Shown: positions 20,541 to 59,844, counted from the stretch's first letter. The stretch: 59,872 nt of DNA from a virus (IMGVR_UViG_3300024231_000697:1-59872), one strand, 5' to 3'. The notes: generated by a model not told the origin, from the letters alone. Made by a program: numbers and translations.

Positions 20541-21719
20541 ATGAAAACTCCATCTGATACATTTTGTGTTTTACCTTGGATGCATTTGGCAACAAGTGCT
20601 GGAGGAGAATTAAGGGTGTGTTGTAATAGCACCCCCAATCAAAATTTTATTAATAAAGCAGATGGAACAGCATATACTGTTTACAATGATGATATCCAAG
20701 AAGCATGGAATAGCCAAGTTTATACTGGTATAAGAAAGCAATTTTTAGATGGCGAACAGCCAGATATGTGTACTCGATGTTTTCGTGAAGAAGCATCTGG
20801 AGTTAAAAGTGCTAGAATACGTTCCAATGATAAATGGATGTTGCCTGATGCAAAGTATGAACAAGATGCAGATTTTAATATTAGGTATGTTGATATTAGA
20901 CTGGGCAATCTATGTAACCTTAAATGCCGCATGTGCAATCCTTGGGCAAGTAACCAGTGGATTAAAGAATGGACACTTATACGTCCAAATGAAACAACTG
21001 AAGAAGTTCAGCATTTAAGTAAACTAACCTGGCCTGAACATGAAAAAACTTGGGATAACTTGTTTAGTATTGTTGATAGCGTAGAGCAGATATACCTCAC
21101 AGGTGGCGAGCCAACTATTATAATGGAACAGTTAAAGCTACTGGACTATTGTATAGATAATGGTTATGCCAAGAACATTGAGCTAAAATACAACACCAAT
21201 TTAACAAACATTCCAGCTAAGTTAATTGACAGATGGAAAGAGTTTAAAATTATTAAATTGCAATGTAGTATTGATGCAGTGGGAGAGTTAGATCGTTATA
21301 TAAGGTATCCAAGTAACTGGAACAAGATACAAGAAAACTTTGATATAATACAAAGTCTAGATAACAAATATATTGAGATACATAATACCGTACAGATGTA
21401 TAATATACTTAGATTACCTGAATTCATACGATGGGCAGAGGATACTGGAAATAACATATATTTTAACATTTTAAACCATCCAAAGGAATTAAATATCAGG
21501 GTATTACCAAAATCTTTAAAGGAATTAGCTAAAAAGCAACTCCAGCCATATACACATATTGATAAAGTACAAGGCATTATTGATTATATGATGGAAGAAG
21601 ATTGGAGTGATTACTACGATGATTTTTTAAAGTATACATATGCATTAGATATGAATAGAAATGAAAACTTGTATGATTTAATACCAGAGTTTAAAATTAG
21701 TAACAGAGACAATTTATGA
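20541..21719 (+). CDS. Radical SAM protein with N-terminal SPASM/twitch-like domain (type A)
   Basis: CVLPW...RVCC...CTRC then CNLKCRMC, TGGEP, YNTN, YIRYPSNW. Confidence 0.9.
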   Translation: MKTPSDTFCVLPWMHLATSAGGELRVCCNSTPNQNFINKADGTAYTVYNDDIQEAWNSQVYTGIRKQFLDGEQPDMCTRCFREEASGVKSARIRSNDKWMLPDAKYEQDADFNIRYVDIRLGNLCNLKCRMCNPWASNQWIKEWTLIRPNETTEEVQHLSKLTWPEHEKTWDNLFSIVDSVEQIYLTGGEPTIIMEQLKLLDYCIDNGYAKNIELKYNTNLTNIPAKLIDRWKEFKIIKLQCSIDAVGELDRYIRYPSNWNKIQENFDIIQSLDNKYIEIHNTVQMYNILRLPEFIRWAEDTGNNIYFNILNHPKELNIRVLPKSLKELAKKQLQPYTHIDKVQGIIDYMMEEDWSDYYDDFLKYTYALDMNRNENLYDLIPEFKISNRDNL

Positions 21720-22789
21720 AACATTACTTGTCTACACCTGTAACACTACAAATGGAAATTAGTAGTATGTGTAATGCATTATGTCTTGGTTGTGCTAGAA
21801 CAGATACCGCTAATTATAACACTAAGCGGCCTAATATACCAAAAAAGCAGTTTATTGATCTTGATACAATACGAAAGATATTTCAAGGTTTTACTACTGT
21901 AACTGAATTAGACTTTTGTGGTACTGTAGATGATCCATTTATGCATCCGTATTTTAATCAAGTGCTGGAAATTGCACTTGATTGTGGAATAAAAAGAGTA
22001 ATAATACATACAAATGGTGGAGCTAGACAGCCAGAATATTTTAGAGAAACATCACGCATATTACAACAATTTGAAAGTGCCGTAATAAGATTTAATATAG
22101 ACGGACTTTCTGATACTAACCACTTATACAGGCAGAATACAAAATACAAAAGAATTATAGAAAATGCTACTGCATTTATACAAGAAGGTGGTCAAGCAGA
22201 ATGGCAATTTTTAGTATTTCCGTGGAACAAGCATCAATTACAAGAAGCAGAAGATTTAGCCAACTCTATGGGATTTGATAAGTTTCAGTATAGAGTGGAT
22301 CGTAGTAATGCTAGTGAAATTGGACTTGATAAAATAAACCTTGCAAAGACTGGAACCAAAATGGAGGCCTATCATTTTACACCTGAACGTTTAATGGAAA
22401 AAACTAGAGAGTTCGAAGATAATGAAATATCATGCCACTTCAGTGAAGATAAGATGTACTTTATAGACTTTAATGCTAGACTATGGCCATGTTGTTTTTT
22501 GCGTAACCAGGATTTTTTTGGAGATGGAGTAAATCATGGAGTTATTGTAAATAATAATATGTACAAAGTCTATGATGATCCTGATTGGAATAGATTGGAT
22601 ATAAACTCAGTAACAGATGTTCTTAATCATCCATTTTATGCTAATGATTTAATAGAAAGTTTTGATGCAAAATACGGATTAGGAAGAGCAAAGAAAATAA
22701 CAAAGTGCGCAATGACTTGTGGTAAAAAAGCAAGAGCTAGAGATAAAGATCATCACATGTGGAAAGAAGAAAGAGAAAATGAAAATTAG
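21716..22789 (+). CDS. Radical SAM protein with C-terminal twitch-like domain (type B)
   Basis: CNALCLGC, CGTVDDPFMHP, HTNGG, IDGL; C-terminal C..LWPCC...CAMTCG. Confidence 0.9.
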   Translation: MKHYLSTPVTLQMEISSMCNALCLGCARTDTANYNTKRPNIPKKQFIDLDTIRKIFQGFTTVTELDFCGTVDDPFMHPYFNQVLEIALDCGIKRVIIHTNGGARQPEYFRETSRILQQFESAVIRFNIDGLSDTNHLYRQNTKYKRIIENATAFIQEGGQAEWQFLVFPWNKHQLQEAEDLANSMGFDKFQYRVDRSNASEIGLDKINLAKTGTKMEAYHFTPERLMEKTREFEDNEISCHFSEDKMYFIDFNARLWPCCFLRNQDFFGDGVNHGVIVNNNMYKVYDDPDWNRLDINSVTDVLNHPFYANDLIESFDAKYGLGRAKKITKCAMTCGKKARARDKDHHMWKEERENEN

Positions 22790-23303
22790 TAAATTTATTA
22801 GAACTGTACCAGATTACCCAGTACTAGGAGTTAACTTTTATGATATGAATAGTTTGTTTAGTAGTAATGTATGGCCAGATGTGGTTAAGGATATGGCAGA
22901 CAGTATTACTTTAAATGGAGAGTTTGATTACCCAACACATATTATTGGTATTGAAAGCAGAGGATTTGTTATTGGAGCTGCATTAGCACAGGAACTAAAC
23001 ATTCCATTTACTATGGTTAGAAAAGATGGGGCTAAATACCCAGGTAAGTTACTAAAAGAAACATACGAACTTGAATATGGAAGTGATACACTGACATTAC
23101 AAGAAGGTATACTTGGTCACACTAGTAGAGTTATTATTGCAGACGATTTAGTAGCAACAGGCGGCAGTATGATGGCCACCAAACGACTAGTAGAGAAAAC
23201 AGGTGCTACTGCATTAGGCGGAGTTACTATCGTAAACTTAAAATATTTAAACAATAATATGGAAAGATTTCCAATAATAACAACATATGAGGTGACAGAA
23301 TGA
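22779..23303 (+). CDS. apt: Adenine phosphoribosyltransferase
   Basis: RTVPDYP, GIESRGF, YELEYG, PRPP-binding IADDLVATGGS. Confidence 0.9.
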   Translation: MKISKFIRTVPDYPVLGVNFYDMNSLFSSNVWPDVVKDMADSITLNGEFDYPTHIIGIESRGFVIGAALAQELNIPFTMVRKDGAKYPGKLLKETYELEYGSDTLTLQEGILGHTSRVIIADDLVATGGSMMATKRLVEKTGATALGGVTIVNLKYLNNNMERFPIITTYEVTE

Positions 23304-23677
23304 TTACAATAACAGAAAAAGCAGCAGAACATTTAAGAAACATTAGTGAAGCAAACGATGGGAAATTTCCAAAACTAGCAGTTAAAGGCGGCGGTTGTGC
23401 TGGATTTAGTTACGATTGGTCACTAGTATCTACGGATCAAATAGACGATATGAGTGATGAAGTAATTGCATTGCCTGATGGTGGTAATATGGTTGTTGAT
23501 GGTATGAGCGTTATGTACTTGTTTGGTACTCAATTAGAACTCAATACTTCATTATTTGGTACTACATTGGAAATAGTTAACCCGTCAGCACAAAGTTCAT
23601 GTGGTTGCGGAGAAAGTATCAACTTTGATATGGACGCAGTTGCAGAAAACTACGATAAATTTAATTTGCCAGAATAA
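23300..23677 (+). CDS. iscA: A-type Fe-S carrier (IscA/SufA/HesB)
   Basis: ITITEKA, GGGCAGFSY, NPSAQSSCGCGES. Confidence 0.92.
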   Translation: MITITEKAAEHLRNISEANDGKFPKLAVKGGGCAGFSYDWSLVSTDQIDDMSDEVIALPDGGNMVVDGMSVMYLFGTQLELNTSLFGTTLEIVNPSAQSSCGCGESINFDMDAVAENYDKFNLPE

Positions 23678-23693
23678 TTTGTAAAGAATTATA

Positions 23694-24108: not shown

Positions 24109-24383
24109 TGCTATCACATAAAGATAAAGCTCTTGAAGATATGGACTTCTTTGAATCAACAGAATTTGAGAAATTCATGCTTAAAAAAGTGCTAGCTGCA
24201 AGCAAGGCTGGTATGACAGATAGAGTAATTGAACAATTACAATTCTTCCTTAGTCTTATTAGGGAACAAAAGAAAACAGCACAAGAATTAGGGCGTACTA
24301 ATTTTAATGATGGTGTAACTGTAAACTTAGGTGGTGAGGATATTCCAGAACCAACTGACGAAGACGAAGAGACGAATGACTAA
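24108..24383 (+). CDS. Hypothetical protein
   Basis: Coupled TAATG overlap; acidic C-terminus. Confidence 0.6.
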   Translation: MLSHKDKALEDMDFFESTEFEKFMLKKVLAASKAGMTDRVIEQLQFFLSLIREQKKTAQELGRTNFNDGVTVNLGGEDIPEPTDEDEETND

Positions 24384-24885
24384 AATGAACGCAAATAATC
24401 AAATGGTAATAGGTGAGCAAGATATTGTACATGGATGGCTTACCGGACGTGCAATTTCACATGCGACTGTGGAAGATATTACACCTATAAATATATACAA
24501 TGAATGGTGCAATACATTTGATTTACAAGATACAATTATTCCTACATTAGAAAATAACAATGCTGACTACGTTAACAATGCTATTGCTAACTGGAATATG
24601 CCACAAGAATACAAAGATATAAATATCGTTGAATACTTGTTGGAAAAAACGACTAACAAACAGCAACATGATCGTGTTGTTATGGAACTTGAACTATTCC
24701 TTGATAGAGGAATGGAACCAGTACTAAAATTTCTAATATACCTAGTAAACATATGTCAACAAAATGATGTAGTATTGGGCGTTGGACGTGGAAGTAGTGT
24801 TGCAAGCTATTGCTTATATCTTATAGGTATACATTGTATAGATAGTATAAAGTATGAACTAGATATAAAAGAGTTCTTAAAATAA
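24376..24885 (+). CDS. Stand-alone fragment of DNA polymerase III alpha (DnaE)-like domain
   Basis: RVVMELELF...GVGRGSSVASYCLYLIGI..IDSIKYEL...FLK. Confidence 0.75.
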   Translation: MTKMNANNQMVIGEQDIVHGWLTGRAISHATVEDITPINIYNEWCNTFDLQDTIIPTLENNNADYVNNAIANWNMPQEYKDINIVEYLLEKTTNKQQHDRVVMELELFLDRGMEPVLKFLIYLVNICQQNDVVLGVGRGSSVASYCLYLIGIHCIDSIKYELDIKEFLK

Positions 24886-26259: not shown

Positions 26260-27693
26260 ATGACTAAAAAGCCTCAGACAGAAAAACCTCCATTCTTAGG
26301 TAAAAAAGAGATGGAAAATGTGTTGTCTGAGGCAGGCATTCCAAACCCGCATACTTTTTGTTTAGCTCCTTATATGAATGGAGATCTAGATCAAGATGGC
26401 ACAGTATATACGTGCTATCGTGGTAAAACAGAACTTGGTAATTGGAAAGAGGATCCTTTTTCTGAGTCATTTAACGGTGGCCCAATGAAAAATGTACGCC
26501 AACAATTATGGGATGGCGAAATTATAAAAAACTGTGAAAGTTGCCAGGAAGCTGAAGCAAATAACAGTATTAGTCCTAGGATTAACTTTTTTAATCGTTT
26601 ATATATTCCAGAACCTTGGGAAGATACATCTACTTTTTATGACATACTACCAGACTTACTTGAACAGATATCTGAAGATCCACAACATGGAAATATATCA
26701 GATATTCAACGCACAGAAATAAGGCCTAGTAGTCTTTGCAACCAGAGGTGCATGCATTGTAACCCAGAATCCAGCACCAAGTGGATCGAAGCTTTGTCTA
26801 AAAAAGAAAACCATGATCAAGTAATAAATCAAGTGGAAATACACACTGAAGAAGACCATCAAAGATCTGTACTAGGGCTAATGAAAGGTGGCGGAATAGT
26901 TATACCTCATGACCAACTTTCTAAATTTTATAAAGGCTCATTAACAAGTGCATCTAAGTATGAGGATGAAGTTGTATCTGTATTAAACTCAAGTAACGAG
27001 ATAGCATTTACTGGTGGTGAGCCACTTATGAATCCTGAACATGAAAGCCAACTTGATTACATTGTTAATGTATCTAAGACAGCTGGTACTAAGACACTAT
27101 CATATAATACTAATTTAAATGTAAAAGATATTAGCAGATATTTTAAGTATTGGCAAAAGTTTCAAGTTATGAATTTAAGAATAAGTATTGATAGTGATCT
27201 TGCTGGATATGAATATTTTAGAACATATGGTAATATGGAAGTGCTTAAAGAAAACTTAAAACTTGTAAAAGAACAACAAAAAATACACCCTGGACATTTT
27301 ATTTTAAGTGGTACAGTTACATTTGGTATGCTAAGTGCATTGCGTTGGAAACAAATTATAGCTGATTGGACAGAGTATGGTTTGGAATTTCACACCAGCC
27401 TAATACTTAAACACCCAATTAGTGTAAAATGGCTACCAAAGCCTCTGGCAGACAAAGCACTTGAAGAGATGCAATGGTGTCTAGATAATCTAGATACATT
27501 TGGTGATATTAGTAAAAGACAGAAAAAGAAAATAGTGCATCATACTAAAGATTGTATGGCATACATAAGTGGATTCAACAATCAATTTGATATGATGCCA
27601 CCACGTACTAGAGAATATATATTGTTTGCTGACCGGTCAAGCGGCAACAATTATAAAGATTATTATCCAGAATTAATTCCATTTATGGAATAG
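26260..27693 (+). CDS. Radical SAM protein, N-terminal twitch-like domain (type A)
   Basis: CLAPY...YTC...CESC then CNQRCMHC, TGGEP, YNTN. Confidence 0.88.
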   Translation: MTKKPQTEKPPFLGKKEMENVLSEAGIPNPHTFCLAPYMNGDLDQDGTVYTCYRGKTELGNWKEDPFSESFNGGPMKNVRQQLWDGEIIKNCESCQEAEANNSISPRINFFNRLYIPEPWEDTSTFYDILPDLLEQISEDPQHGNISDIQRTEIRPSSLCNQRCMHCNPESSTKWIEALSKKENHDQVINQVEIHTEEDHQRSVLGLMKGGGIVIPHDQLSKFYKGSLTSASKYEDEVVSVLNSSNEIAFTGGEPLMNPEHESQLDYIVNVSKTAGTKTLSYNTNLNVKDISRYFKYWQKFQVMNLRISIDSDLAGYEYFRTYGNMEVLKENLKLVKEQQKIHPGHFILSGTVTFGMLSALRWKQIIADWTEYGLEFHTSLILKHPISVKWLPKPLADKALEEMQWCLDNLDTFGDISKRQKKKIVHHTKDCMAYISGFNNQFDMMPPRTREYILFADRSSGNNYKDYYPELIPFME

Positions 27694-46492: not shown

Positions 46493-46516
46493 TGGTATTC
46501 TTCCTGTTATATGTAT

Positions 46517-46544
46517 ATAATAGCATATTCTATTAGATAGTCAA
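46517..46544 (-). promoter_or_regulatory. Sigma70-type promoter for 46492
   Basis: Minus strand TTGACT-16bp-TATTAT with TGC extension. Confidence 0.55.
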
Positions 46545-46708
46545 TTAAATTTTTACTGTTTTAGACACAAGATCTGCTTGAGTTATGCCCTTTAAAGTGG
46601 TTTATAGGACTACATCTAGTAGCTAAAAACGTTTTGGCTATCCTATTACACAAATCTATAATTAACTTGCCGTTTAATTGCCCTTAAATTATTTAACTAG
46701 TGTTACTA

Positions 46709-46716
46709 TATTTATA
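46709..46716 (-). promoter_or_regulatory. T4-type late promoter
   Basis: Minus strand TATAAATA overlapping the stop of 46712-47284. Confidence 0.45.
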
Positions 46717-49551: not shown

Positions 49552-49578
49552 TTATAAATCTCCTATTCTTAAGACTAT

Positions 49579-50559: not shown

Positions 50560-51320
50560 TAACAGTGCAATCCCATACTTTTGCCGTATCCGTATCTTGC
50601 TTTCTCTTTTAATAAGTCACTTTGGTCCCCATCAAATATCATGTGTATACGTGGTTCATCGCTGCGATTCCAAACTGCATGCTCGTATCCTGTGTTAATT
50701 TTAAATGCACTACCTGGTGTGTAAGGCAATTCGCCCCAACCACCCATCACTAGTTTACATCCGTCAGGATTGTTAACTGCTACATTAGTTGCACCAACTC
50801 CTGTAATTCTTGGCCTATCAGTATGTGGTGCTAGCCAACCGCCTGGCAATACTGCCATAAAGCGCACACGGGTAAATACGTCATATAGTTTACTATCCAT
50901 CATCCATTCTTTAGTACGTGGTGCAAATTTAGCTATGTCAGTCCAGTCACTTAAATCACGTTCTGCACTATCTGGTAAATTATAATCTTCTGGTACATTA
51001 GTATGTACACTACTCATACCATACATACATAAACTTAGCCAACCACTACTGTTTGGTCGATGCAATGTATAACAACTGGTGTACAATAAATGATTTGCTT
51101 CCTCAAAGATTTCTTCATGTGGCATGTCATCTATGCCTAAATCAATCCAAGGTAGTTTTGTTTTGTCTAATATTTCGTCTAGCTCGTCCTGTGCATCAGC
51201 CCATAAGTAGGCACTATCAACACCCTCAAACATAGGAGTAATATCTTCATTTGCTTCAAAAAACTCTTGAGTTTCTCTATTGGGTTCTTCCCAAGTAAGT
51301 TGTTTTCCTTCGTACCACAT
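50559..51320 (-). CDS. 2OG-Fe(II) oxygenase, Asp/Asn beta-hydroxylase-like
   Basis: RVRFM..PGG...HTD...H(AVWN)..PRIH facial triad pattern. Confidence 0.8.
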   Translation of the reverse strand: MWYEGKQLTWEEPNRETQEFFEANEDITPMFEGVDSAYLWADAQDELDEILDKTKLPWIDLGIDDMPHEEIFEEANHLLYTSCYTLHRPNSSGWLSLCMYGMSSVHTNVPEDYNLPDSAERDLSDWTDIAKFAPRTKEWMMDSKLYDVFTRVRFMAVLPGGWLAPHTDRPRITGVGATNVAVNNPDGCKLVMGGWGELPYTPGSAFKINTGYEHAVWNRSDEPRIHMIFDGDQSDLLKEKARYGYGKSMGLHC

Positions 51321-52745
51321 TTATAATATTCCTGGTAATGATCTGATATTGTGATAACTGTGATAAAAACCATGCGGAGTATCGCCAGTTAAATATACAT
51401 CTTTATTGTTTATTAATAATTCGTTTACTAAGTTTAAAAAAGCAGCCTGTGCTTGAAACGCATGAGTATTTATATAGTTAATTTCATAAGACCATATATT
51501 ACTAATTTGTAAAAATACACGATTGTCTTTCCCTACTTCTTCTACTAGCGTATTCCAATTTTTAACAATGTCAATATTTAAAAATACATGTTCTAGATTT
51601 CTAATATGATTCCAGTGTTCTAACCATTGCTCTTGGCTATCATAGCTGTCTATAAACTCGCCAACTAAGTCTACATCGTAAATAATACAATCTTGTCTGT
51701 GGAAGCCATTGTCCATAATTGTATGTATGTTATCTTCAACAAACTTCTCAAAGTTGGTACCATCCCAGTTATTTAAAACAAACTTAGTCCATTCAGTTGC
51801 ATACCAACTAAAGTCACTCCAGATAACTTTCTTTAAATTATCTCCAGCATTTGTCATATGTCTAAATTGATGCAATCCACTACACGGCGCAATTATAACA
51901 TCAACTGGCAAATCTGTTTCTTCTGGTACATCTTCTGTGTTTGTTATATACATGACATGACTATCCATAACTTTGAATCCATACATTTCACGTTTGTCTT
52001 CAGGAACCTCGTCATAATAAAACTGTGTAAGAAATTCTTTATCCTGTTTATTCCAATCTACATCCAACATCCACATTTTGGTTTGCTCAATATCATCTTC
52101 TGGATAACAACAATATTTTTCATTTCTAATATCGTAAGATAAATTTCTTACAACACAATTATTAGCAAGTGATATTGCAATTAATGCGTCAAATTCATCT
52201 CCTGCAAAATCCAATCCACCTAATGTTTTTCCTGTAGGAGTTAAGTACATTGGAGTATATTCGTCATGAAAGTTTTCTTCACTTGGAATAAATCCAGGAT
52301 AAAAATCATTCCACTCGAATTCTGGATAGTCAATCTCTGCCCATTTTTTTAAATTTAATACCACGCATTGTTTGTGCCATTCTGGTGCTTGTGCGCTAAT
52401 AAGTCTGTCAATAATATGTCCCGCACAAAACCAATCGTCCCATGTAGATACTTCTTTGAGTAACTCATCATCAAATTCAGCAGTCATTGGCCAAGTACCA
52501 TCAAACCATAATACTGCCATTTCAAAATTCATATCTGCTAATTGTCGTAGTGTAGAATATCCATCATCTGTCCAACTAGTAGTGTTTACTACTGCGTGTT
52601 GTGTAGAGTTTGTTAGATTAATTGACATGCACTTTTTTAATTTACTAGCATACTCATGTTCATTTTTAATCTCATCTACTAATATTTCACCAAATATACA
52701 ATGTGCTATTTGATTTTTAGATCCAAGTTTGATGTATGTATTCAT
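51321..52745 (-). CDS. Hypothetical two-domain protein (possible GT-A/GT8-like N-terminus), paralog of 52742-54196
   Basis: AVLWFDGTWP; CVVLNLKKW; ITNTE; ISNIWSY. Confidence 0.45.
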   Translation of the reverse strand: MNTYIKLGSKNQIAHCIFGEILVDEIKNEHEYASKLKKCMSINLTNSTQHAVVNTTSWTDDGYSTLRQLADMNFEMAVLWFDGTWPMTAEFDDELLKEVSTWDDWFCAGHIIDRLISAQAPEWHKQCVVLNLKKWAEIDYPEFEWNDFYPGFIPSEENFHDEYTPMYLTPTGKTLGGLDFAGDEFDALIAISLANNCVVRNLSYDIRNEKYCCYPEDDIEQTKMWMLDVDWNKQDKEFLTQFYYDEVPEDKREMYGFKVMDSHVMYITNTEDVPEETDLPVDVIIAPCSGLHQFRHMTNAGDNLKKVIWSDFSWYATEWTKFVLNNWDGTNFEKFVEDNIHTIMDNGFHRQDCIIYDVDLVGEFIDSYDSQEQWLEHWNHIRNLEHVFLNIDIVKNWNTLVEEVGKDNRVFLQISNIWSYEINYINTHAFQAQAAFLNLVNELLINNKDVYLTGDTPHGFYHSYHNIRSLPGIL

Positions 52746-54196
52746 TCTTCTAATCCTATAACTAGGTTATTAGTTGCACTGCCAATTACTCTGGCAGGAC
52801 ACATTAAATCAGCATCATTAACATCAGTACCAGCATACCAACTTTCATTATTAGTCTGTTGTATACGCTCTATCATATTCATAAAGCTACGCTCTAACAC
52901 AAACGGCTTGGCTAGTATTTTAGGAATAATATAACTGTAAATGTTACTAGCCCAGAAGAATGTTTTAACATCATGTAGTTTTACAAATAACTCATCTTGT
53001 CCATTGATTAAGTCTGCCTGTACTACTGTGTGATCACAAAAGCTAATTTGTGTCCAGAAGTCTTGCCAACTAGATTGCCCTCCAAATTGGTCTATTACAT
53101 TTGGCCATCTTTCAACAGTTAAGTCTAACAAATCTTTGTTAGCATCTGGATTACGTTCACACCATGCTTTTACCCAACCTGGATAGTCTTCACCATCCCA
53201 CATCTTAAGTGTTTCTCTTTTAAATTTTACACTATCTTCATCAAAGTCATACCAGACAAATCTAGTCATACCTGGGTTTACTCCATACTTGTATGCATAG
53301 TATAATAATTTAAATCCTGCTGTTGCTCCTACGTACTGATCAAACACTGTATCTTCAAGTAAACTACTTGTTGTAGGCGCACTGGGTTCAGTATTAATAA
53401 AGTAAATTGGACTACCAGGCAAGTTAATATTTTCCAATAATTTTTTACCTTGATAACTAACCTCTGTTGGATCATGAAACTCGCCACTTAGTCCTCGTTC
53501 AAGTTCATCTGTACCAAGCCAAGGTTTAATTAATGTTACACTATCCATTAAGTCATCACTAATGCCCCACACTCTCATATTACGTAGTAAACTGTATTGT
53601 ATCCAACTTGTAGCGAACGTATTCTGATGTATGTAATTTACTGCTTCTGCACGTTTCCACTTTCCGTTACTAGGGCTTAAACTATATGCACTATCTTCCC
53701 ATCTTTTAGTAACATCTGTTTCCATCCAATCAGGATGTCTTGCTGGTTCCCACAGTGGGCCTACTTGATGTTCCATCCAAGATGCTATGTTAATAATAAC
53801 AAAACTTCTACCAAGATAAGGATACATGTTTGGACGATCACTTATAATTTGACCGGATACCATCCAGTTTGGATCTTCAGCATTATATTTGTCAATCTCA
53901 TTCAATAGTTTGATATTAAAATCTTCACTTGCTGGCCAAGCACCATCAAACCAAACTACTGCATACTTATAGTCCATAGAATTCATTGCAATAATCCAAC
54001 TTGTATCAAACATGTTGTATAAATTTACAATACCGCCTCTAACATGATTATTGCATTCTACATTTTGAATTGTTTGCAATTTTTGTTTTAGTAGTGCGTG
54101 TTGGTTTAGTGCTGGATCTCTATCTAAAAAAGCATGAACTATAGGCCAGCTTTGTTCAGTATGATAGTAACTCCAGTTTTGTTGTCCTTGGATCAT
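52742..54196 (-). CDS. Hypothetical two-domain protein, paralog of 51321-52745
   Basis: AVVWFDGAWP; FVIINIASW; FINTE; ASNIYSY. Confidence 0.45.
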   Translation of the reverse strand: MIQGQQNWSYYHTEQSWPIVHAFLDRDPALNQHALLKQKLQTIQNVECNNHVRGGIVNLYNMFDTSWIIAMNSMDYKYAVVWFDGAWPASEDFNIKLLNEIDKYNAEDPNWMVSGQIISDRPNMYPYLGRSFVIINIASWMEHQVGPLWEPARHPDWMETDVTKRWEDSAYSLSPSNGKWKRAEAVNYIHQNTFATSWIQYSLLRNMRVWGISDDLMDSVTLIKPWLGTDELERGLSGEFHDPTEVSYQGKKLLENINLPGSPIYFINTEPSAPTTSSLLEDTVFDQYVGATAGFKLLYYAYKYGVNPGMTRFVWYDFDEDSVKFKRETLKMWDGEDYPGWVKAWCERNPDANKDLLDLTVERWPNVIDQFGGQSSWQDFWTQISFCDHTVVQADLINGQDELFVKLHDVKTFFWASNIYSYIIPKILAKPFVLERSFMNMIERIQQTNNESWYAGTDVNDADLMCPARVIGSATNNLVIGLEE

Positions 54197-55416
54197 TTAT
54201 TATTCTCTGCTACTATGTCCATTCCTTCTAAACTCATATTTAAATAAGTTTTTACCATGGACTTTAAGGTTGCTTCATTAGGATATCTATTTTCAATATC
54301 ACGAGTGTATTTACGCATACGTGCATATAGCATGTATACTGATGTATTGTTTTCCATGTAAGTTGCAAAGCGATCCATTTCAGGGTGACGCTTCTCTGCT
54401 GATCTTAAATGTGAAATAATACTATTTTTATAGTTGCCCTGCCATACTGCTGGACTTAAATAGTTTGGTGTTTGTAATATGTTTGCTGTAATAAATTTTA
54501 AGTCTACTGGAGACTCTTTCCAGAAGTCATAAAACTCAGGCATCTGGTATACATTATGAGCTTGTACTGTAATTCCTACTGCTAAGTCAATACCATCTAT
54601 TAATGATAATGCTAACATGTTCTCGTAAACTGTATCCCAATCGCCGTCTTGTCTAATGTAGTTATAAACTTCTCCAACGCCATCCATACTTACTTTGATA
54701 TTAACGTGTTTAAACTCACTCCATATTTTAACCAGATCGTACTTCTTAAACTTGATATAACTTAGGTTACTAGCATAGCGCAAACGTATACGCTTCTTGA
54801 TTTCTGTAGGTATACTGTCTAGTAAATCATAATGCTCTTTATTAATGATTGGCTCGCCACCAGTAAACTGTAGGGTATGTACATGATCCCAAAGCTCAGG
54901 CCACTCTGACAAGCTCTCAAATAGCGTTGTAGGGCGTAGTAAGCGTGTCTCGTATCCATCTTTTGTATACTTCTTTATAATATCTAAGTCCGCCACACGT
55001 TTGTATGAACTGTGTGTACTACACATAATGCACTTTAGGTTACAGAAGTTACTAACTTTTAGTTCAATCCAAATAGGAGGATTATCGACTGAGTAGTCAT
55101 CATTCACTTGAATAATATCAGCAAACTCTAACCAGTTGTCTTTTTCCCACTGTAACCTATTACTTACAATCCCGCTGTCCTCATTGTGCCAGCACACTTC
55201 ACAGCGTTCTGGTCTTTCTCCGTTTGCTAGGGATTTTCGTAATTCTTTATAATTTTCGTTGTTCCAAGTTTCAATAGCTGATTCGTTTGGATTGTTAAGA
55301 GGTATTTCTTGTGCCTCACAACACGGCACTAGATCGCCGCCTGCTGTACCATATATATGTACATAGGGTAGCATACAAAATGTATCGCTCTCTTTTAATT
55401 TATTTTTATCAATCAT
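54193..55416 (-). CDS. Radical SAM protein type A
   Basis: CMLPY...VPCC...CEVC then CNLKCIMC, TGGEP. Confidence 0.9.
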   Translation of the reverse strand: MIDKNKLKESDTFCMLPYVHIYGTAGGDLVPCCEAQEIPLNNPNESAIETWNNENYKELRKSLANGERPERCEVCWHNEDSGIVSNRLQWEKDNWLEFADIIQVNDDYSVDNPPIWIELKVSNFCNLKCIMCSTHSSYKRVADLDIIKKYTKDGYETRLLRPTTLFESLSEWPELWDHVHTLQFTGGEPIINKEHYDLLDSIPTEIKKRIRLRYASNLSYIKFKKYDLVKIWSEFKHVNIKVSMDGVGEVYNYIRQDGDWDTVYENMLALSLIDGIDLAVGITVQAHNVYQMPEFYDFWKESPVDLKFITANILQTPNYLSPAVWQGNYKNSIISHLRSAEKRHPEMDRFATYMENNTSVYMLYARMRKYTRDIENRYPNEATLKSMVKTYLNMSLEGMDIVAENNK

Positions 55417-55417
55417 G

Positions 55418-56602
55418 TCAATCCCAATTAATAGACGGTACGTCTAGCTCAACTAAGTCTTTAAACTTTCGCAATTCAGGCCAGCTAGTATCCAGTTGGT
55501 CTCTTATACGTAACACTTGTCTTATATCTTTCATATAATCTGTGCTATTGTCCTCTACTCCATTTGGTTTGCAAATACCATATAATAAGTCTCTTAGGGG
55601 TCGCATTTTACCTGGTTTAATTTGGTCACTAAATTGCATACGTATTGTAAACTCTAGTTTTTTCTTAAACCAATCTGGCCAATGTTGAATACTTAAATAA
55701 TGAGGCTCATAAACTGTTTGCAATATAACGTCAATATCTTTTACTATTTTTGCCCAATATACAAACTCAAACATGTAAGCTGCATTTACTACATTAACTG
55801 TAGTTGCAGTCTTTACAGTTACTTTGCCAGGATATTCTGACCTCATTGCAATCCATTTGTCAAGAGTAGCTTCAACTTGTTCCCATTTGCTAGGTGCTCT
55901 TAACGCATCATTAACACCACCATATGCATCAATACTTGCACTTATGGTAATGTGCTTAAACTGCAACAGTGCATTGTAGTCTGTTTTCTTAGGCCACCAT
56001 GTGCAATTGGTGAAAATTTCTATCTGTATGTTTGGTGCTAGTCCAGCGTCTGCCAATCTTACAACAAAGTTTAAGAATTGGCGATGTAAGAATGGCTCTC
56101 CACCTGTTACCTTAATATAACGTAAATCACGTAGCATGTCAACATTAATATCGTCCAAGTCTAATTCTTGTTTACTTTTTAACTTTTTGATAGTTTCTGC
56201 AGTTTCCATTTTTAATTTAATACTATCGTCGTCCCATGTATGACTAAAATCAGGTCCGCAACTCATACACTTTAAGTTACATAGTCTACCCACTGTAATT
56301 TCCAAATACTCTAGTTTGACGTCATCTGTAAAGTCACTAAAGAACTCATCAGCCTCAGTACGCATACTGCTACCTTTGGTTTCTTCATCTGCTTTACATT
56401 TAAAACAACCTGGATGCCATTCGTTACGCATCATAGTTTCACGTATATCTGCAAAACTTGCATCAAATGTATCCACATGTTGTCTATCTCCTTCCCCAAG
56501 GAACCTGTTGTGAAATCTACAACAAGGTGTGGCATCCACGCCATGCATTAGCATAGCACTTTTAAATGGATATGCACATGCGTTTTTGGGTAATTTACTC
56601 AA
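55418..56602 (-). CDS. Radical SAM protein type A
   Basis: CAYPF...TPCC...CFKC then CNLKCMSC, TGGEP. Start is uncertain; TTG 56602 chosen because it overlaps the upstream stop. Confidence 0.88.
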   Translation of the reverse strand: MSKLPKNACAYPFKSAMLMHGVDATPCCRFHNRFLGEGDRQHVDTFDASFADIRETMMRNEWHPGCFKCKADEETKGSSMRTEADEFFSDFTDDVKLEYLEITVGRLCNLKCMSCGPDFSHTWDDDSIKLKMETAETIKKLKSKQELDLDDINVDMLRDLRYIKVTGGEPFLHRQFLNFVVRLADAGLAPNIQIEIFTNCTWWPKKTDYNALLQFKHITISASIDAYGGVNDALRAPSKWEQVEATLDKWIAMRSEYPGKVTVKTATTVNVVNAAYMFEFVYWAKIVKDIDVILQTVYEPHYLSIQHWPDWFKKKLEFTIRMQFSDQIKPGKMRPLRDLLYGICKPNGVEDNSTDYMKDIRQVLRIRDQLDTSWPELRKFKDLVELDVPSINWD

Positions 56603-57533
56603 GGAATTTGCCTTTGTTTTTATAACGCTTAACAGCATTACGGATATTAACACGATGGTATTTTTTATCTCTATTAAACATGCTCCATTCTTCTGTCATA
56701 GGAGCGGTAGCAATATGTACTGTGTTACTTGGTTCAAGTCCATAATGTTCACACACGGCATCATGTGCTTCTTTATATTTCTTTGGTACTGTGTCTGGAC
56801 TAAAGTGTTCAAACAAGAAGTTTGCAATCATAACATTTAAATGTATACCATGGTTCCATTCAGTTTGTACACTTAAACTACCTTCGTCAATACGACTAAA
56901 CACGATACCTGCACGCCAGTTACCACAGCTAAGTCCTTTGGTTGTACTAAATGCAGCCATTGTGATACATGGTTGATCTAAGTCAACTTCAATTCCATGA
57001 CATGTTCCAAACCAAGCAAGATCAACAAATACTGGTATTTCTAATTCGTTACACTTGCCAATAATTCTATCCCACTCATCATGCTTTCTACCAGTACCAC
57101 TAAATGGTAAACTAATAATTAATGCATCACCCTTTGCTAATGGAGTTTCTTCAACATAACGTTTGTGATGCCACTCGCCTTCAAGTAATACATCACGGTT
57201 ATAAGGATATTCTCCGCGGTACATACGCAAATTATATCCATTAGCCATACAATAATAATGCCACCAATCAAGTCCTTGTGTTGTTCCCAAACTTACAAAT
57301 TTATGTGGAAAACTTTCTAAGCCAGTAATACTATTCATTTTACTACTAGTAATCCATTTTGGATATACGTCTAAAAACTTAGTAGCCGCATCACTAATAC
57401 CTTCAATACTCATTTCTGGACCAAAGAATTCGCTTTCCAATTTATCATAAAATGGTTGGTTCCATATACTATTGCCGTGATTTGCAAAGTCTTCGTTTTT
57501 AATTACTTGATTCTTGGGTGGTTTTTTAGCCAT
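56595..57533 (-). CDS. PLP-dependent fold-type I enzyme (aminotransferase/decarboxylase-like)
   Basis: GTTQG, FVDLAW, FSTTKGL...RAG (SxxK...RxG). Confidence 0.7.
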   Translation of the reverse strand: MAKKPPKNQVIKNEDFANHGNSIWNQPFYDKLESEFFGPEMSIEGISDAATKFLDVYPKWITSSKMNSITGLESFPHKFVSLGTTQGLDWWHYYCMANGYNLRMYRGEYPYNRDVLLEGEWHHKRYVEETPLAKGDALIISLPFSGTGRKHDEWDRIIGKCNELEIPVFVDLAWFGTCHGIEVDLDQPCITMAAFSTTKGLSCGNWRAGIVFSRIDEGSLSVQTEWNHGIHLNVMIANFLFEHFSPDTVPKKYKEAHDAVCEHYGLEPSNTVHIATAPMTEEWSMFNRDKKYHRVNIRNAVKRYKNKGKFLE

Positions 57534-57535
57534 TA

Positions 57536-58801
57536 TTATTTGTCCTCTTTATATGGGGCAAGCTCTGGTACTGCCGCAAATGTATCTGTCTTACGAAGCC
57601 TATCTAAGTCTCGTGTATATTGTAGGAAATGTTTCCAACGCTTTTTTTGTTCTACTGGATCTACTTCTCTTTTTAATCCATTTCTAATATCAGCAACACC
57701 TGTTTGGTATTCAAACATATCTACGTGATGGCTATCTAATGGCCAAATAGTTGATGTTGGAATATTTTCCATTTTCTTTAATGCTTGTTGTTTTAACTCT
57801 AGTGGAAGGTTTGCAATATTTAAATATGCTGGACTTACAACAACATTTGTCATTGCAATACTAGCACGTTTTCTATGGTGCTTGGCAAACCAGTCCCATA
57901 TTTTATCTAGTTCAAAAACATTAGTAGACATTACTGTCACTGCAAAAACAACCTCAACATTATCCATTTCATAAAACTGGTCAATGTTCTTGTTAAGGTC
58001 TTCCCATGTGTATTTACCACCGCGAATAATACTGTAAAGTTCATCTACTGCTTCAATACTAATCAATAGTTCTACGTGTTTAAATTCTGCAAATATATCT
58101 TTAAACTTTTGTTCAACTACGGTAGCATTTGTACTAATATCTAAACTAACATTGGCAGCTAGTCCTGCATCTACAAACCATTTAAGTACACTATAGCAAT
58201 GTTCGTCATACAATGGTTCACCGCCACGCAATGCAACTACTTCTAAATTTCTAAAATACTCTGGGTTGGCAAATAAATTATCCATAAAGGTTAAATCATC
58301 TACGCCATTATAGCCTGTTTGTGTTTCTGTCCAATATTCAGGATTTTCCTTATTAAGTGCTTTGCCGTCTTTTTTCCAACTTGTACTAACAAACGGATTG
58401 CAATGTATACATGCTAGGTTACATTTGTTGCTTAGTGTAAAATCCAAGTAACGAATATCTGGTTCCATGTCTGCACTATGCCATTCACTTTCAACACGCA
58501 ATTCATAATCCATTTTGTCCCAAAAGAACATACGTCTGCTACGTCCACTTTTTTCTTTTTTAGCACAATTCATACATGCTGGTGGAATAATTCTATTACG
58601 ATGATCTTCTCTTAGTTTTTTAAATGCATCACCATGCCAAATTTCAGCAAGGGTTTGATCATTAATATTTCCAAGCCTATCCTTATAAATGATGTCTGGT
58701 ACAACAGTGCCTCCCCATTTAATAGTGAGTGCATGCCAAGGTGCCATACAAGTTGGATACTTTTTATCATCTAAAAATCTATTTCTATATTCTTTTTTCA
58801 T
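57536..58801 (-). CDS. Radical SAM protein type A
   Basis: CMAPW...CMNC then CNLACIHC, RGGEP, STN. Confidence 0.9.
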   Translation of the reverse strand: MKKEYRNRFLDDKKYPTCMAPWHALTIKWGGTVVPDIIYKDRLGNINDQTLAEIWHGDAFKKLREDHRNRIIPPACMNCAKKEKSGRSRRMFFWDKMDYELRVESEWHSADMEPDIRYLDFTLSNKCNLACIHCNPFVSTSWKKDGKALNKENPEYWTETQTGYNGVDDLTFMDNLFANPEYFRNLEVVALRGGEPLYDEHCYSVLKWFVDAGLAANVSLDISTNATVVEQKFKDIFAEFKHVELLISIEAVDELYSIIRGGKYTWEDLNKNIDQFYEMDNVEVVFAVTVMSTNVFELDKIWDWFAKHHRKRASIAMTNVVVSPAYLNIANLPLELKQQALKKMENIPTSTIWPLDSHHVDMFEYQTGVADIRNGLKREVDPVEQKKRWKHFLQYTRDLDRLRKTDTFAAVPELAPYKEDK

Positions 58802-59844
58802 TTACAAATTCCACATATATCTCTACACTGTTTCCAGCTCGCATTTTTTACTGCTCTCTTTAGGTCAGTAGTAAACCATTCATTATTTAATACTTCAGAT
58901 AAACTATATTTTTTCAAATCATTTTCTTCTCTTGCTTCAAAAAAGCTATCATCAACCATTAAATTTAAGTCATGGTTTTCAATTGGTACACCATATAAAC
59001 TAAGATGACAACAAGGCCAAACTGTTCCCCAAGGATCAATTTGTATTTTTCTATCACTATACCAAGGACACTTATGATCCTTTTGATTGTCCATAATTTC
59101 GTCAGTGGTTTCCAAGAAAACATTTCTATCACGTAAGTCACTTATTGGTCTGTCTTCTCTATCGTTCCAGTTTACTTGATACTCGTCAATATCATAATGT
59201 CCACTAATTTCATAATTTCCATCTACTGTAACAATATTCATATGGTCACCATGACTATGTCTTAATGCAAATTGCACACACCCATTCTCATATGCCAGAT
59301 TTTCAACTTCTTTTATCTGATGCTTGTTGTGTTCAAACAATGTCATAGTATAACATGCTCTGCCGCCGCCTGCAATAAAAGCTTTACTATTTCTAATAAT
59401 TTTTTCCCATTCAGTCTTGCGCCTGTATAGAGAGTGTGTATCGCTCATTCCATCAACTGCAAACTTAACTGCATGATTGGTAAACTTTCTGCATATCTTG
59501 CCTAATGAATTCCAAAACTTTTCAGTTCTCATTGCTCCATTAGTGTGTATATACAAAGCAGTTTCAGGATGATAAGCACAATATATTTCTAGCATTTCCA
59601 CCATTTTTGGGTGCATCATTGGATCACCCCAATTACCATTTAAGCTAAGTTCAACAATATACCATCCTCTGGTATCCTCACTACATAATCGTGTCCATAC
59701 CTCCATGTCAAAATGTTCGAGAACCAGTTCTTGTTTAACCTCGTCACCATCTACATTTCTCACACAGGCACCACATCTAGCATTACAATAACTAGTTAAG
59801 TCAACTTGCAAATTATTAACAACTCTAGCCCAATCCATATTCAT
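58798..59844 (-). CDS. Radical SAM protein type B
   Basis: CNARCGAC, NGNWGDPMMHP, HTNG, VDG; C-terminal CPW..VWPCC...CRDICG. Confidence 0.9.
   Translation of the reverse strand: MNMDWARVVNNLQVDLTSYCNARCGACVRNVDGDEVKQELVLEHFDMEVWTRLCSEDTRGWYIVELSLNGNWGDPMMHPKMVEMLEIYCAYHPETALYIHTNGAMRTEKFWNSLGKICRKFTNHAVKFAVDGMSDTHSLYRRKTEWEKIIRNSKAFIAGGGRACYTMTLFEHNKHQIKEVENLAYENGCVQFALRHSHGDHMNIVTVDGNYEISGHYDIDEYQVNWNDREDRPISDLRDRNVFLETTDEIMDNQKDHKCPWYSDRKIQIDPWGTVWPCCHLSLYGVPIENHDLNLMVDDSFFEAREENDLKKYSLSEVLNNEWFTTDLKRAVKNASWKQCRDICGICK

Follow-up and report, generated by a model that had tools for sequence, protein, structure and literature searches.

A conserved radical SAM tailoring cassette in a large marine phage, matched by tandem arrays in Bdellovibrionota and possibly acting on sugars

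Why would a phage carry 13 radical SAM enzymes? The window analysed here, a 59,872-nucleotide viral stretch (IMGVR_UViG_3300024231_000697), comes from a large marine phage, T4-like or jumbo, and 13 intact enzymes of this kind take up about a quarter of it. A sequence-only reading had proposed 13 CxxxCxxC loci with auxiliary Fe-S domains, forming a dedicated multi-step pathway. All 13 ORFs (named here by their lower coordinate) contain the motif, twice in 58798, and all match PF04055 (E <= 5.1e-5), ten of them above the curated cut-off of 29.5 bits; 21716 (27.8 bits), 26260 (23.9) and 55418 (26.5) score below it. They make up 13 of the 86 ORFs in a non-overlapping set, against a chance expectation of 0.16 motif-bearing ORFs (maximum 3 in 500 residue shuffles within each ORF). 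A six-frame scan found 16 occurrences in frames of at least 80 codons, 14 of them inside the 13 ORFs; the other two fall in short frames at 6664 (87 codons) and 30948 (97 codons). As had been claimed, the last 18 kb (42140-59844) contains ten of the 13. The ORF given as 42188 is indeed a radical SAM gene, but it begins at 42140, and 42188 is an internal Met.

The enzymes fall into three types: nine exceed the NCBIfam cut-off for NF033640 and carry an N-terminal twitch Fe-S domain, three have a C-terminal SPASM-like domain, which in one case is split over two ORFs, and one stands apart. The auxiliary domains are real, with PF13186 (SPASM) above cut-off in seven ORFs: 58798, where it is C-terminal, and 20541, 26260, 43184, 47277, 54193 and 57536, where it is N-terminal. 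In an alignment of the nine NF033640 paralogs the cluster Cys, GGEP and twitch Cys are invariant, except that Asp replaces the second twitch Cys in 57536.

Three of these nine are on the plus strand: 20541-21719 (NF033640 396.5 bits against a cut-off of 170; PF04055 43 bits; SPASM at residues 9-80; CNLKCRMC at residue 125; 49% identity to 47277), the most divergent paralog 26260-27693 (209.7 bits; SPASM at residues 34-96), which sits on a long branch in the tree described below, and 43184-44440 (284.1 bits; SPASM at residues 7-69, 46.4 bits). The minus strand encodes 47277-48506 (388.7 bits), the short forms 48496-49551 (197.3 bits; 31% identity to 49579) and 49579-50559 (198.9 bits; PF04055 49.4 bits), 54193-55416 (311.1 bits), 55418-56653 (226.9 bits) and 57536-58801 (270.6 bits; SPASM 47.2 bits). 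The start of 55418-56653 is uncertain, its GTG start overlapping 56595-57533 by 59 nt. The C-terminal SPASM type is represented by 58798-59844 on the minus strand (PF04055 34.2 bits; SPASM at residues 259-342, 23.5 bits) and its plus-strand paralog 21716-22789 (PF04055 E 3.2e-6; 28% identity, E 8e-36), which ends in LWPCC...CAMTCG. The third member is divided: 42140-42928 (plus; 262 aa; PF04055 44.6 bits; 24.5% identity to 58798) is a radical SAM core that lacks an auxiliary Cys domain, and the 89-aa ORF 42915-43184 (plus) is the detached SPASM-like domain that belongs with it. Its RLWPCC...CDPICKIEC has counterparts at the C-termini of 58798 and 21716, the ORF matches the C-terminal portion of a bacterial radical SAM ORF of 379 aa, and the same split is seen in a related phage contig (L001). 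The separate type, with a Cys-rich C-terminus, is 45320-46492 (minus; PF04055 56.1 bits).

Could these be unrelated auxiliary genes that aid host housekeeping, for instance in making cofactors or modifying tRNA? Weak matches to MoaA, NirJ, AhbD and similar families would suit this idea, as would the Fe-S-related auxiliary genes of marine phages described in one report (PMC5332604). The characterised families are, however, matched far below their cut-offs (MoaA, for example, 51 bits against 284), nine of the 13 enzymes belong to a single uncharacterised subfamily, NF033640 is above cut-off in none of 14 well-known control genomes, and the genes sit together in one conserved operon whose other members are not housekeeping genes. 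Family scores and control genomes already largely refute the housekeeping explanation, to which we give almost no credence.

Sixteen related viral contigs from IMG/VR share the synteny of that operon, which lies on the minus strand; its core order is 57536-56595-55418-54193-52742-51321-50559-(48496 or 49579)-47277...45320. Orthologs of 47277 occur in all 16 (65-83% identity) and of 45320 in 13 (76-87%); those of 54193 share 62-85% identity. CxxxCxxC and GGE are retained in 107 of 107 full-length phage copies. The cassette genes are under purifying selection, with median pairwise dN/dS of 0.069-0.432 across nine core genes (0.069 for 57536, 0.108 for 47277). Five related records hold 7, 18, 18, 21 and 25 PF04055 matches. 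In a related record more twitch enzymes lie beyond the 58798 ortholog; the minus-strand operon probably continues past the end of our window. Near-identical contigs in seawater metatranscriptomes (4 runs from 4 studies, covering 14-26 of 30 bins) indicate presence in RNA libraries, which is no proof of transcription.

The cassette is not confined to phages. It recurs as tandem arrays in the chromosomes of Bdellovibrionota, predatory bacteria, where twitch enzymes are accompanied by the 45320-type enzyme, the aminotransferase-like protein and the AspH/LpxO-type hydroxylase; at the subfamily level the phage genes are matched by these arrays. Using patterns from one subfamily, we retrieved 79 bacterial loci with 219 twitch-type ORFs, 1-8 per locus, nearly all in Bdellovibrionota MAGs, and in five bacterial genomes, 1.2-3.0 Mb in size, the number of matches ranges from 7 to 16. 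The aminotransferase is found in 13 of these loci and the hydroxylase/51321-type cluster in 9. The 45320 type is a recurrent partner of the arrays, with 36 bacterial ORFs in 29 loci, 28 of them directly adjoining a twitch enzyme. Directly beside the arrays, and oriented like them, lie GT2 genes, in several different gene orders; carbamoyltransferases occur in 8 loci. Part of the GT2 association reflects a single conserved locus that recurs in related genomes.

Phage-specific clades, a check that the sequence-only reading had proposed, did not form; the phage paralogs sit in subfamilies common to bacteria. In a FastTree phylogeny of 252 rows the nine window copies require nine label changes, and five of the nine are closer to a bacterial MAG homolog than to any window paralog, among them 54193, for which the nearer sequence is a Bdellovibrionia homolog, and, by a slight margin, 26260. 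Because the radical SAM paralogs in the window share only 19-49% identity, and given these label changes and nearer bacterial homologs, we regard them as a cassette rather than as recent duplicates. Synteny across 16 contigs, purifying selection, the intact motifs and the Bdellovibrionota arrays all bear out the claim of a dedicated multi-step pathway over host support, and we hold with high confidence that the phage carries a dedicated, conserved radical SAM tailoring cassette.

What else does the cassette contain? Embedded between twitch genes is 56595-57533 (minus), a short PLP-dependent protein of the aminotransferase fold, class I/II-like. Its atlas clusters are named aminotransferase class I/II (structure TM 0.82-0.90), the S..K, D.A and PFSG motifs are invariant in 21 homologs, and it has a PDB aminotransferase match at E 0.037, which together support the predicted PLP enzyme; 14 of 14 bacterial homologs directly adjoin a twitch enzyme. 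The predicted 2OG-Fe(II) hydroxylase is 50559-51320 (minus), an Asp/Asn beta-hydroxylase-type (AspH/LpxO family) dioxygenase (PF05118, E 3.1e-10) with homologs in 8 bacterial loci; a 1062-aa bacterial ORF in the same BLAST cluster has PF05118 at residues 364-535. Beside it lie 51321-52745 and 52742-54196 (both minus), previously read as two GT-like paralogs. They are paralogs (E 2e-21), but nothing supports a glycosyltransferase: 51321 has no Pfam or NCBIfam match and 52742 no family, name or PDB match. Bacterial 51321 homologs fall in a BLAST cluster that also contains hydroxylases, and for 52742 the atlas points weakly (feature score 0.83) to a viral cluster with PF05118 in 97% of members. 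Aligned to GT2 with hhalign, 52742 gave a probability of 0.1%.

Both expected nitroreductase folds match PF00881: 44637-45332 (minus; E 8.1e-11), the last large gene of the operon, and 41614-42195 (plus; E 3e-6), in the plus-strand sub-cluster. The supposed sulfotransferase-like ORF finds no support: 46712-47284 (minus), the sole ORF left over in that stretch, encodes a 190-aa protein within the operon that has no family match, its one homolog being in L015. The methyltransferase placed just upstream, 39536-40273 (plus), is possible, with Methyltransf_23 at 19.8 bits against a cut-off of 27 and an ortholog of 49.6% identity in L106. An HtrA-like trypsin-fold protease with PDZ, 40312-41571 (plus; PF13365 E 2e-27, and PDZ_2), is co-linear with the cluster in L106, where its ortholog lies upstream of further twitch enzymes. 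In three related phages (L004, L006 and L007) homologs of a 93-aa ORF, 19589-19870 (plus), lie within the core operon; in L004 the homolog, of 59% identity, lies between the 54193 and 52742 orthologs. Family matches uphold the UDP-sugar dehydrogenase with its SGNH/GDSL piece (16655) and the PMM (37427).

What might such a cassette act on? A sugar, nucleotide-sugar or glycoconjugate seems the most likely substrate, and we put the probability of the whole statement, dedicated cassette and carbohydrate substrate together, at roughly 45%. The core would comprise the twitch array, the two further radical SAM types, the aminotransferase-fold protein, the dioxygenase with its two partner proteins, and the nitroreductase-fold flavoproteins. 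In this scheme the paralogs would divide the unactivated C-H positions of a single growing substrate among them, each removing a hydrogen from its own site, and the twitch cluster would deal with the second electron. One or more of these oxidations could leave a ketone, which the adjacent aminotransferase would convert to an amine, following the BtrN/BtrS logic of aminoglycoside synthesis. The carbohydrate lean derives from GT2 and carbamoyltransferase genes beside the bacterial arrays and from twitch fusions: with Aminotran_3, with Sulfotransfer_3, TPR and Methyltransf_11, with an FkbM methyltransferase and, below cut-off, with an EryCIII-like glycosyltransferase domain. B12-binding domains and tandem twitch-twitch forms also occur. 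The earlier lean towards a glycan thus gains support from fusions and neighbours, and none from the GT-like and sulfotransferase-like ORFs it had invoked. In addition, two sugar-acting enzymes give matches, BtrN to the twitch domain through its own (E 2.3e-7) and BlsE to the radical SAM core.

Several observations run against a carbohydrate. No glycosyltransferase, sugar-nucleotide or sugar-aminotransferase (DegT) domain is supported among the phage cluster proteins, and the aminotransferase resembles class I/II, whose members mostly use amino and keto acids. The UDP-sugar dehydrogenase and PMM are common phage genes 2-24 kb off the nearest radical SAM genes, and the GT2 link comes from loci retrieved via one subfamily, the repeated locus included. 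The two best PDB matches of the core are the peptide maturase SkfB (E 9.3e-13) and 8VPO, from a RiPP cyclopropyl synthase study (E 8.4e-11). These matches favour an alternative that we consider unlikely, in which many radical SAM enzymes, hydroxylase, methyltransferase and protease would hypermodify one polypeptide, either a ribosomal peptide or a protein of the phage or its host, as in proteusins and polytheonamides. The AspH-type hydroxylase, the HtrA-like protease, with a ClpP also present, and the TPR repeats, found in all three methyltransferase/sulfotransferase fusions, would fit a protein or peptide as well; PF05118 includes protein hydroxylases as well as LpxO. A conserved 73-aa ORF (44437-44658, minus) follows the 45320-type enzyme in four phage loci, directly so in L001, L003 and L004. 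No homolog of it was found in the bacterial loci, however, phage and bacterial cassettes have no small ORF in common, an absence that adds to the carbohydrate lean, and no candidate for a conserved precursor peptide emerged. The Pfam scans, mostly of larger ORFs, gave no PqqD/RRE family, no peptidase or RRE is among the fused domains found, and the GT2 and carbamoyltransferase neighbours point elsewhere.

The LpxO kinship also raises the idea of lipid modification, perhaps of the lipid A/core part of LPS, in which the envelope of an infected or predatory cell would be reshaped by a hydroxylation like that of LpxO/KdoO together with radical C-C or C-H chemistry on acyl chains. A profile of the nine paralogs does match an archaeal tetraether lipid synthase structure (E 2.5e-6), and patatin-like phospholipase (6 ORFs) and LPG-synthase-TM-like genes (4 ORFs) lie near bacterial arrays. 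These matches are weak and generic, the phage cluster shows no acyltransferase or lipid A gene, and the aminotransferase suits lipids poorly, as do the fusions to sulfotransferase and methyltransferase; we judge this improbable. A hypermodified DNA base or other nucleotide, built for the phage genome, is likewise improbable. Known thymidine hypermodification pathways do include radical SAM and PLP enzymes, and the window encodes a PTPS/QueD homolog (16170), two weak QueC-like ORFs (991 and 2156), a phosphoribosyltransferase (22719) and a PRPP synthetase (27756). Direct support is lacking: the best QueE-family match among those listed reaches 23.1 bits (49579) against a cut-off of 260, the thymidylate synthase (38636) and adjoining DHFR (38139) match ordinary families with no hydroxymethylase named, no DpdA/TGT or DNA glycosylase-like gene is seen in the cluster, and small bacterial chromosomes hold 7-16 copies of the same cassette beside GT2 genes.

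Whatever the substrate, the phage itself would provide part of the cofactor logistics. An A-type Fe-S carrier of the IscA/HesB type, 23300-23677 (plus; PF01521 E 6.7e-14), retains the three carrier Cys (GGGCAGF...SSCGCGES), and a 7Fe-type ferredoxin, 18683-19039 (plus; DUF3470 E 2e-12 plus Fer4 families), with both Cys motifs intact, could serve the radical SAM enzymes as electron donor. There is a precedent from 2017, when a marine phage was described that has 12 radical SAM genes and also an Fe-S carrier.

Read from its genes, the feature is real and striking: a radical SAM/twitch tailoring pathway with a putative substrate. The 13 ORFs that an earlier sequence-only reading had named as radical SAM enzymes (ORFs are given here by their start coordinates in the window) all bear the name out: each carries CxxxCxxC, the motif for the SAM-binding [4Fe-4S] cluster, and each matches the radical SAM superfamily profile PF04055 at E <= 5.1e-5, ten of them above the 29.5-bit cut-off and three (21716, 26260 and 55418) below it. 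The motif occurs in 13 of the 86 ORFs of a non-overlapping set for the window; shuffling the residues within each ORF, repeated 500 times, yields 0.16 such ORFs on average and never more than 3. Nine of the enzymes (20541, 26260, 43184, 47277, 48496, 49579, 54193, 55418 and 57536) have an auxiliary Fe-S twitch domain at the N-terminus and belong to N_Twi_rSAM (NF033640), a named NCBIfam subfamily to which no function is assigned; they match it end to end at 197.3-396.5 bits, against a curated cut-off of 170. The remaining four comprise three paralogs that carry a C-terminal Cys-rich domain (21716, 42140 and 58798) and one enzyme of a separate type, also with a Cys-rich C-terminus (45320). Non-members 21716, 45320 and 58798 reach only 43.6-48.8 bits, and 42140 has no NF033640 match among the 25 of 26 families listed. 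Scored against prokaryotic viperin (NF038283), the best value was 42.3 bits, with a cut-off of 180.

In the nine NF033640 members the twitch Cys motif precedes the CxxxCxxC core. An alignment of these paralogs shows the twitch ligands C12, C82 and C85 to be invariant in all nine, as are the three cluster cysteines and a GGEP motif, within which GGE is the SAM-binding motif of radical SAM enzymes. The second twitch Cys, which follows a Gly turn, is present in eight and replaced by Asp in 57536; this gene (57536-58801, minus strand) has the Asp at residue about 36, yet is the most strongly conserved of the operon (median dN/dS 0.069). The SPASM/twitch profile PF13186 exceeds its 21.5-bit cut-off at the N-terminus of six ORFs (residues 7-96) and at the C-terminus of 58798, and falls short at 17.9 bits in 49579; 48496 and 55418 have no PF13186 match, but their NF033640 coverage starts at model position 2-5. 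In 42140 the Cys-rich domain is detached: a 262-aa core and an 89-aa SPASM-like Cys ORF (42915-43184) overlap slightly within 42140-43184 on the plus strand. A related viral locus, L001, has the same split (13966-14903 and 14884-15931), so the two-ORF arrangement looks kept rather than a sequencing error.

The neighbours of these enzymes were partly as the sequence-only reading had described them. Its two nitroreductase folds (44637 and 41614) match the nitroreductase family, its hydroxylase (50559) falls in PF05118, the Asp/Asn beta-hydroxylase type, and its PLP enzyme (56595) has an aminotransferase fold: the matching atlas clusters are named aminotransferase class I/II (TM 0.82-0.90), the S..K and D.A motifs are invariant across 21 homologs, and the PDB gives an aminotransferase match at E 0.037. 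The methyltransferase placed just upstream (39536) survives as a possible one, on a weak match only. Two labels are not supported. The "GT-like" pair 51321 and 52742 are mutual paralogs (E 2e-21) to which no family is assigned; neither has a Pfam, NCBIfam or PDB match, the hhalign probability against GT2 is 0.1%, that against two fused proteins with methyltransferase or sulfotransferase domains is 0.1-0.3%, and none of their 91 homologs has a Pfam domain or an informative name. An atlas lead for 52742, at a low feature score of 0.83, is a viral cluster with PF05118 in 97% of its members, and the bacterial homologs of the pair form one BLAST cluster with hydroxylase-containing ORFs of up to 1062 aa. 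Likewise, the "sulfotransferase-like" ORF 46712 matches no family, has a single homolog by jackhmmer, and gave an empty BLASTP result against a sulfotransferase-bearing protein.

An HtrA-like protease with a PDZ domain (40312) lies beside the possible methyltransferase. In a related viral record (L106; G007 47000-66500) orthologs of both are co-linear and stand upstream of three further twitch enzymes and an ortholog of 58798. Because of this co-linearity we read the plus-strand block at 39536-44440 and the minus-strand operon at 59844-44437 as one supercluster, inverted in part here and truncated by the end of the window. Relative to the core operon and compared with L106, the inverted block comprises the methyltransferase-like gene, the protease, a nitroreductase and two radical SAM genes, which places a convergent junction at about 44.4-44.6 kb.

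The operon is conserved in related viruses. Orthologs of 47277 at 65-83% identity were found in 16 IMG/VR loci, in which a recurrent gene order runs 57536, aminotransferase, 55418, 54193, 52742, 51321, hydroxylase, one or two short twitch enzymes, 47277, a variable stretch and 45320. Core orthologs are mostly 50-87% identical, 52742 and 51321 mostly 34-45% only. Additional radical SAM paralogs occupy the variable stretch, so that each locus holds 5-11 CxxxCxxC ORFs of at least 200 aa, and five whole related records contain 7, 18, 18, 21 and 25 PF04055 matches, the highest number in 184 kb. Both CxxxCxxC and GGE are kept in all 107 full-length twitch copies of the viral loci. A check of nine core genes for the decay that the sequence-only reading had raised found none: pairwise dN/dS medians were 0.069-0.432 over pairs with 0.05 < dS < 2, many of them near saturation, and it is the genes which have diverged most, with dS approaching saturation, that give the higher medians. 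Near-identical contigs, spread across the 20 kb, occur in four seawater metatranscriptome runs from four studies, which marks no more than the presence of DNA or RNA in those libraries, uncovered bins being uninformative.

A counterpart exists in predatory bacteria. Two peptide patterns from the 47277/20541 subfamily, run against a set of prokaryote genomes with the best 80 of 139 matches kept, gave 79 distinct loci, nearly all titled Bdellovibrionota MAGs and several on contigs of 0.9-3.0 Mb; the pattern-based retrieval and the selection bias both the taxonomic spread and the subfamily mix of this set. Twitch-type ORFs account for 219 of the 935 ORFs in these loci (1-8 per locus, often in tandem arrays). 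The 45320 type is represented by 36 ORFs in 29 loci, 28 of which directly adjoin a twitch enzyme, and the aminotransferase by 14 ORFs in 13 loci, every one adjoining a twitch enzyme and with up to 46% identity to 56595. A hydroxylase/51321-type cluster occurs in nine of the 79 loci and the C-terminal SPASM type in 17. One Bdellovibrionia MAG (L027/L028) has a compact set of hydroxylase, 57536-like, aminotransferase, 54193-like and 47277-like genes, next to which, on one side, lie genes for an RpoD-like sigma factor and a Ser/Thr kinase. NF033640 matches number 7-16 in each of five whole genomes of 1.2-3.0 Mb, whereas none of 14 well-known control genomes has a match above the cut-off. A 1.9-Mb Bdellovibrionales genome (G002, which holds locus L055) carries 16 NF033640 genes, a large share for its size, most of them in two tandem runs in C1 at about 792-803 kb and 1068-1092 kb.

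How are the phage copies related to the bacterial ones? The sequence-only reading had proposed a test for phage-specific clades; the idea of such clades is contradicted by a FastTree phylogeny of 252 twitch proteins, which drew on 6 of the 16 viral loci and on sequences 280-560 aa long. Nine label changes are required to place the nine window copies, and five of these copies are closer to a bacterial-MAG homolog than to any window paralog, by a slight margin in the case of 26260. Each of the pairs 47277/20541 and 48496/49579 seems to have arisen by duplication in the phage lineage. From their placement in the tree, the window paralogs are old, distinct subfamilies, a pattern that fits distinct steps of one pathway; that they serve unrelated housekeeping roles is the least likely of the alternatives we weighed. 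Twitch arrays also lie on contigs binned as Crocinitomicaceae (L025), Gammaproteobacteria (L026) and Rickettsiales (L052) MAGs. In L025 and L026 the 47277/20541 homologs are 49-68% identical to those of the window, and the 45320 homolog of L025 is 78% identical; all three contigs look phage-like and may have been assigned to bacterial MAGs by a binning error, and they were labelled apart in the tree and excluded from the neighbour sample.

What would such an array of enzymes act on? We favour a carbohydrate or glycoconjugate, at a probability of roughly 45%, judging by fusions, neighbours, domain similarity and the absence of a precursor. A Microcystis protein, named by NCBI after the NF033640 family, fuses a twitch enzyme to a class-III aminotransferase; other fusion partners of twitch enzymes are Sulfotransfer_3 with TPR and Methyltransf_11, an FkbM-type methyltransferase, a B12-binding radical SAM domain and an EryCIII-like glycosyltransferase domain, the last scoring below the cut-off, and many longer proteins are tandem twitch-twitch forms. 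In the 79 bacterial loci, a biased and partly redundant set as far as counts of GT2 genes are concerned, such genes adjoin the arrays in the same orientation and in several gene orders, in one of which they separate the 45320-type enzyme from the aminotransferase; eight of the loci have carbamoyltransferases. BtrN has a twitch domain with which the one here aligns at E 2.3e-7, and the core also matches BlsE; BtrN and BlsE are both sugar-acting enzymes. Against a carbohydrate, the 56595 aminotransferase looks class I/II, and a glycosyltransferase was not identifiable in the phage cluster.

A peptide or protein substrate, which seems unlikely to us, would account for the best solved relatives of the core, the peptide maturases SkfB (E 9.3e-13) and 8VPO, and would suit the AspH-type hydroxylases, the protease and the TPR fusions. 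It would lead one to look for a precursor, and a comparison of 995 small ORFs, taken from the window, 16 viral loci and 79 bacterial loci (96 sources in all), found none common to phage and bacterial cassettes; a 73-aa ORF (44437) occurs in four phage loci only. Nor did profile scans of the proteins and their fused forms match a PqqD-like RiPP recognition element. The known RiPP maturases (SkfB, PqqE, AlbA and the 8VPO cyclopropyl synthase) share the auxiliary Fe-S domain and include those best core relatives, but their SPASM/twitch domain is C-terminal and they come with a precursor peptide gene and usually an RRE, neither of which appeared in the small-ORF comparison or the profile scans. 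We regard a lipid, lipid A included, as very improbable, and DNA or a nucleotide likewise; scores against QueE (TIGR03963) were only 21.7-23.1 bits, with an equivalog cut-off of 260.

The closest analogy for a carbohydrate substrate, drawn from sequence comparison, is the BtrN/BtrS pair of butirosin biosynthesis. BtrN oxidises a secondary alcohol of a sugar or cyclitol by two electrons. BtrN and the window enzymes each have a single auxiliary twitch cluster, and the radical SAM-aminotransferase pairing recurs here as adjacency in 14 of 14 bacterial cases and as the fusion in Microcystis. By contrast, the twitch domain is C-terminal in BtrN and N-terminal here, BtrS is of the sugar-aminotransferase type whereas the aminotransferase here looks class I/II, and butirosin has one radical SAM enzyme where the window has many paralogs.

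Going further, we speculate that marine jumbo-type phages and predatory Bdellovibrionota have in common an undescribed pathway, in which a dozen or more twitch enzymes would functionalise C-H bonds of one sugar or glycan successively and yield a heavily tailored glycoconjugate of the surface or envelope that would represent a new chemical class, with the phage's own Fe-S carrier and ferredoxin running the pathway in an oxic-ocean host. Because the victims of phages and Bdellovibrionota alike are Gram-negative cells, the envelope interface between attacker and victim may be where the product acts. Taken as a whole this proposal is doubtful.

The Fe-S helper genes lie near 20541 and 21716, the first pair of radical SAM genes. 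One (18683-19039) encodes a 7Fe-type ferredoxin in which both Cys motifs are intact, the other (23300-23677; PF01521) an A-type Fe-S carrier that keeps its three cysteines. Adjoining the ferredoxin is a 182-aa ORF (19040-19588, plus strand) that matches the FTR1 iron permease family at 24.9 bits, just under the 25.3 cut-off, and for its position may be a candidate iron-related membrane protein. Radical SAM enzymes are costly, being oxygen-sensitive and requiring iron, sulfur and low-potential electrons; despite this cost the phage lineage devotes about a quarter of the window to such genes (14,946 of 59,872 bases). The interest of the system lies in this scale, in its self-provisioning with Fe-S helpers, and in its occurrence in both large phages and predatory bacteria. 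With 7,898 clusters at 50% identity matching at E <= 1e-30, NF033640 is a large family, for whose chemistry a defined, conserved cassette offers a concrete, expressible unit, and the Bdellovibrionota counterpart offers a cultivable route to it.

Nishimura et al. (2017, PMC5332604) reported a 183-kb environmental viral genome, marine and T4-like, which carries, like the window, an A-type carrier gene and many radical SAM genes (12), together with cas4, grx and paaD; they proposed that the Fe-S assembly genes of viruses serve the viruses' own Fe-S proteins. The bare observation of radical SAM multiplicity in a phage is thus already in print; that account, its supplementary Table S1E aside, comes without subfamily, operon structure, bacterial counterpart or function. 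Beyond it we found no literature bearing on the finding: searches for NF033640 by N-terminal twitch/SPASM terms or by accession returned no paper, and those under its NCBI name returned, by their titles, only other SPASM/twitch radical SAM enzymes. With the same supplementary table set aside, we did not find in print which subfamily the enzymes belong to, an account of the operon and of how it is conserved, a count of up to 25 matches in a record, a counterpart in Bdellovibrionota, or the fusion evidence.

The phage itself is probably large. The IMG/VR virus record that forms the window (59,872 bases, classed linear) has a CheckV completeness estimate of 12%, and five related records of 110-205 kb have estimates of 31-56%, so the full genome is probably well above 300 kb. 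The family-B DNA polymerase is 44-47% identical to those of jumbo myoviruses such as Atu_ph07, GAP32 and PBECO4, and the window further encodes a clamp loader, thymidylate synthase, endolysin, DHFR, PRPP synthetase and ClpP. The PRPP synthetase has 56-61% identity, mostly to alphaproteobacterial genes, which is only a hint at the host and does not point towards Bdellovibrionota. Cultured phages gave no megablast match to 40000-59872 and none to the 45320 protein; 56595 has one weak match, a "putative aminotransferase" of a Pelagibacter phage, and 47277 matches 28 records, most of them of KVP40-like Vibrio phages, with 20-25% identity and in neighbourhoods annotated only as hypothetical. The G+C content is 33-37% throughout, and the GC skew changes sign at ~45 kb, coinciding with the switch in gene orientation. 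Promoter and terminator signals were at or below shuffled expectation, and the gap at 46493-46711 yielded no ORF of interest.

Several genes outside the cluster merit mention. A PTPS/QueD homolog (16170-16646; E 2.7e-13), two weak QueC-like ORFs matching in the C-terminal part only (991-1722 and 2156-2953) and a phosphoribosyltransferase (22719-23303) hint at a 7-deazapurine or pterin-related pathway; neither a QueE-level radical SAM enzyme nor DpdA was seen in the window. In a 573-aa ORF (16655-18376, plus strand), residues 36-260 match a UDP-glucose/GDP-mannose dehydrogenase in its N-terminal and central domains and are joined to a weak GDSL lipase-like piece at residues 280-334, while the customary C-terminal dehydrogenase domain is absent from its matches. 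Finally, a 184-aa ORF (24331-24885, plus strand) matches nothing but part of the NTPase domain of DNA polymerase III alpha (PF07733, E 1.6e-10), which makes it an odd fragment or a small stand-alone domain.
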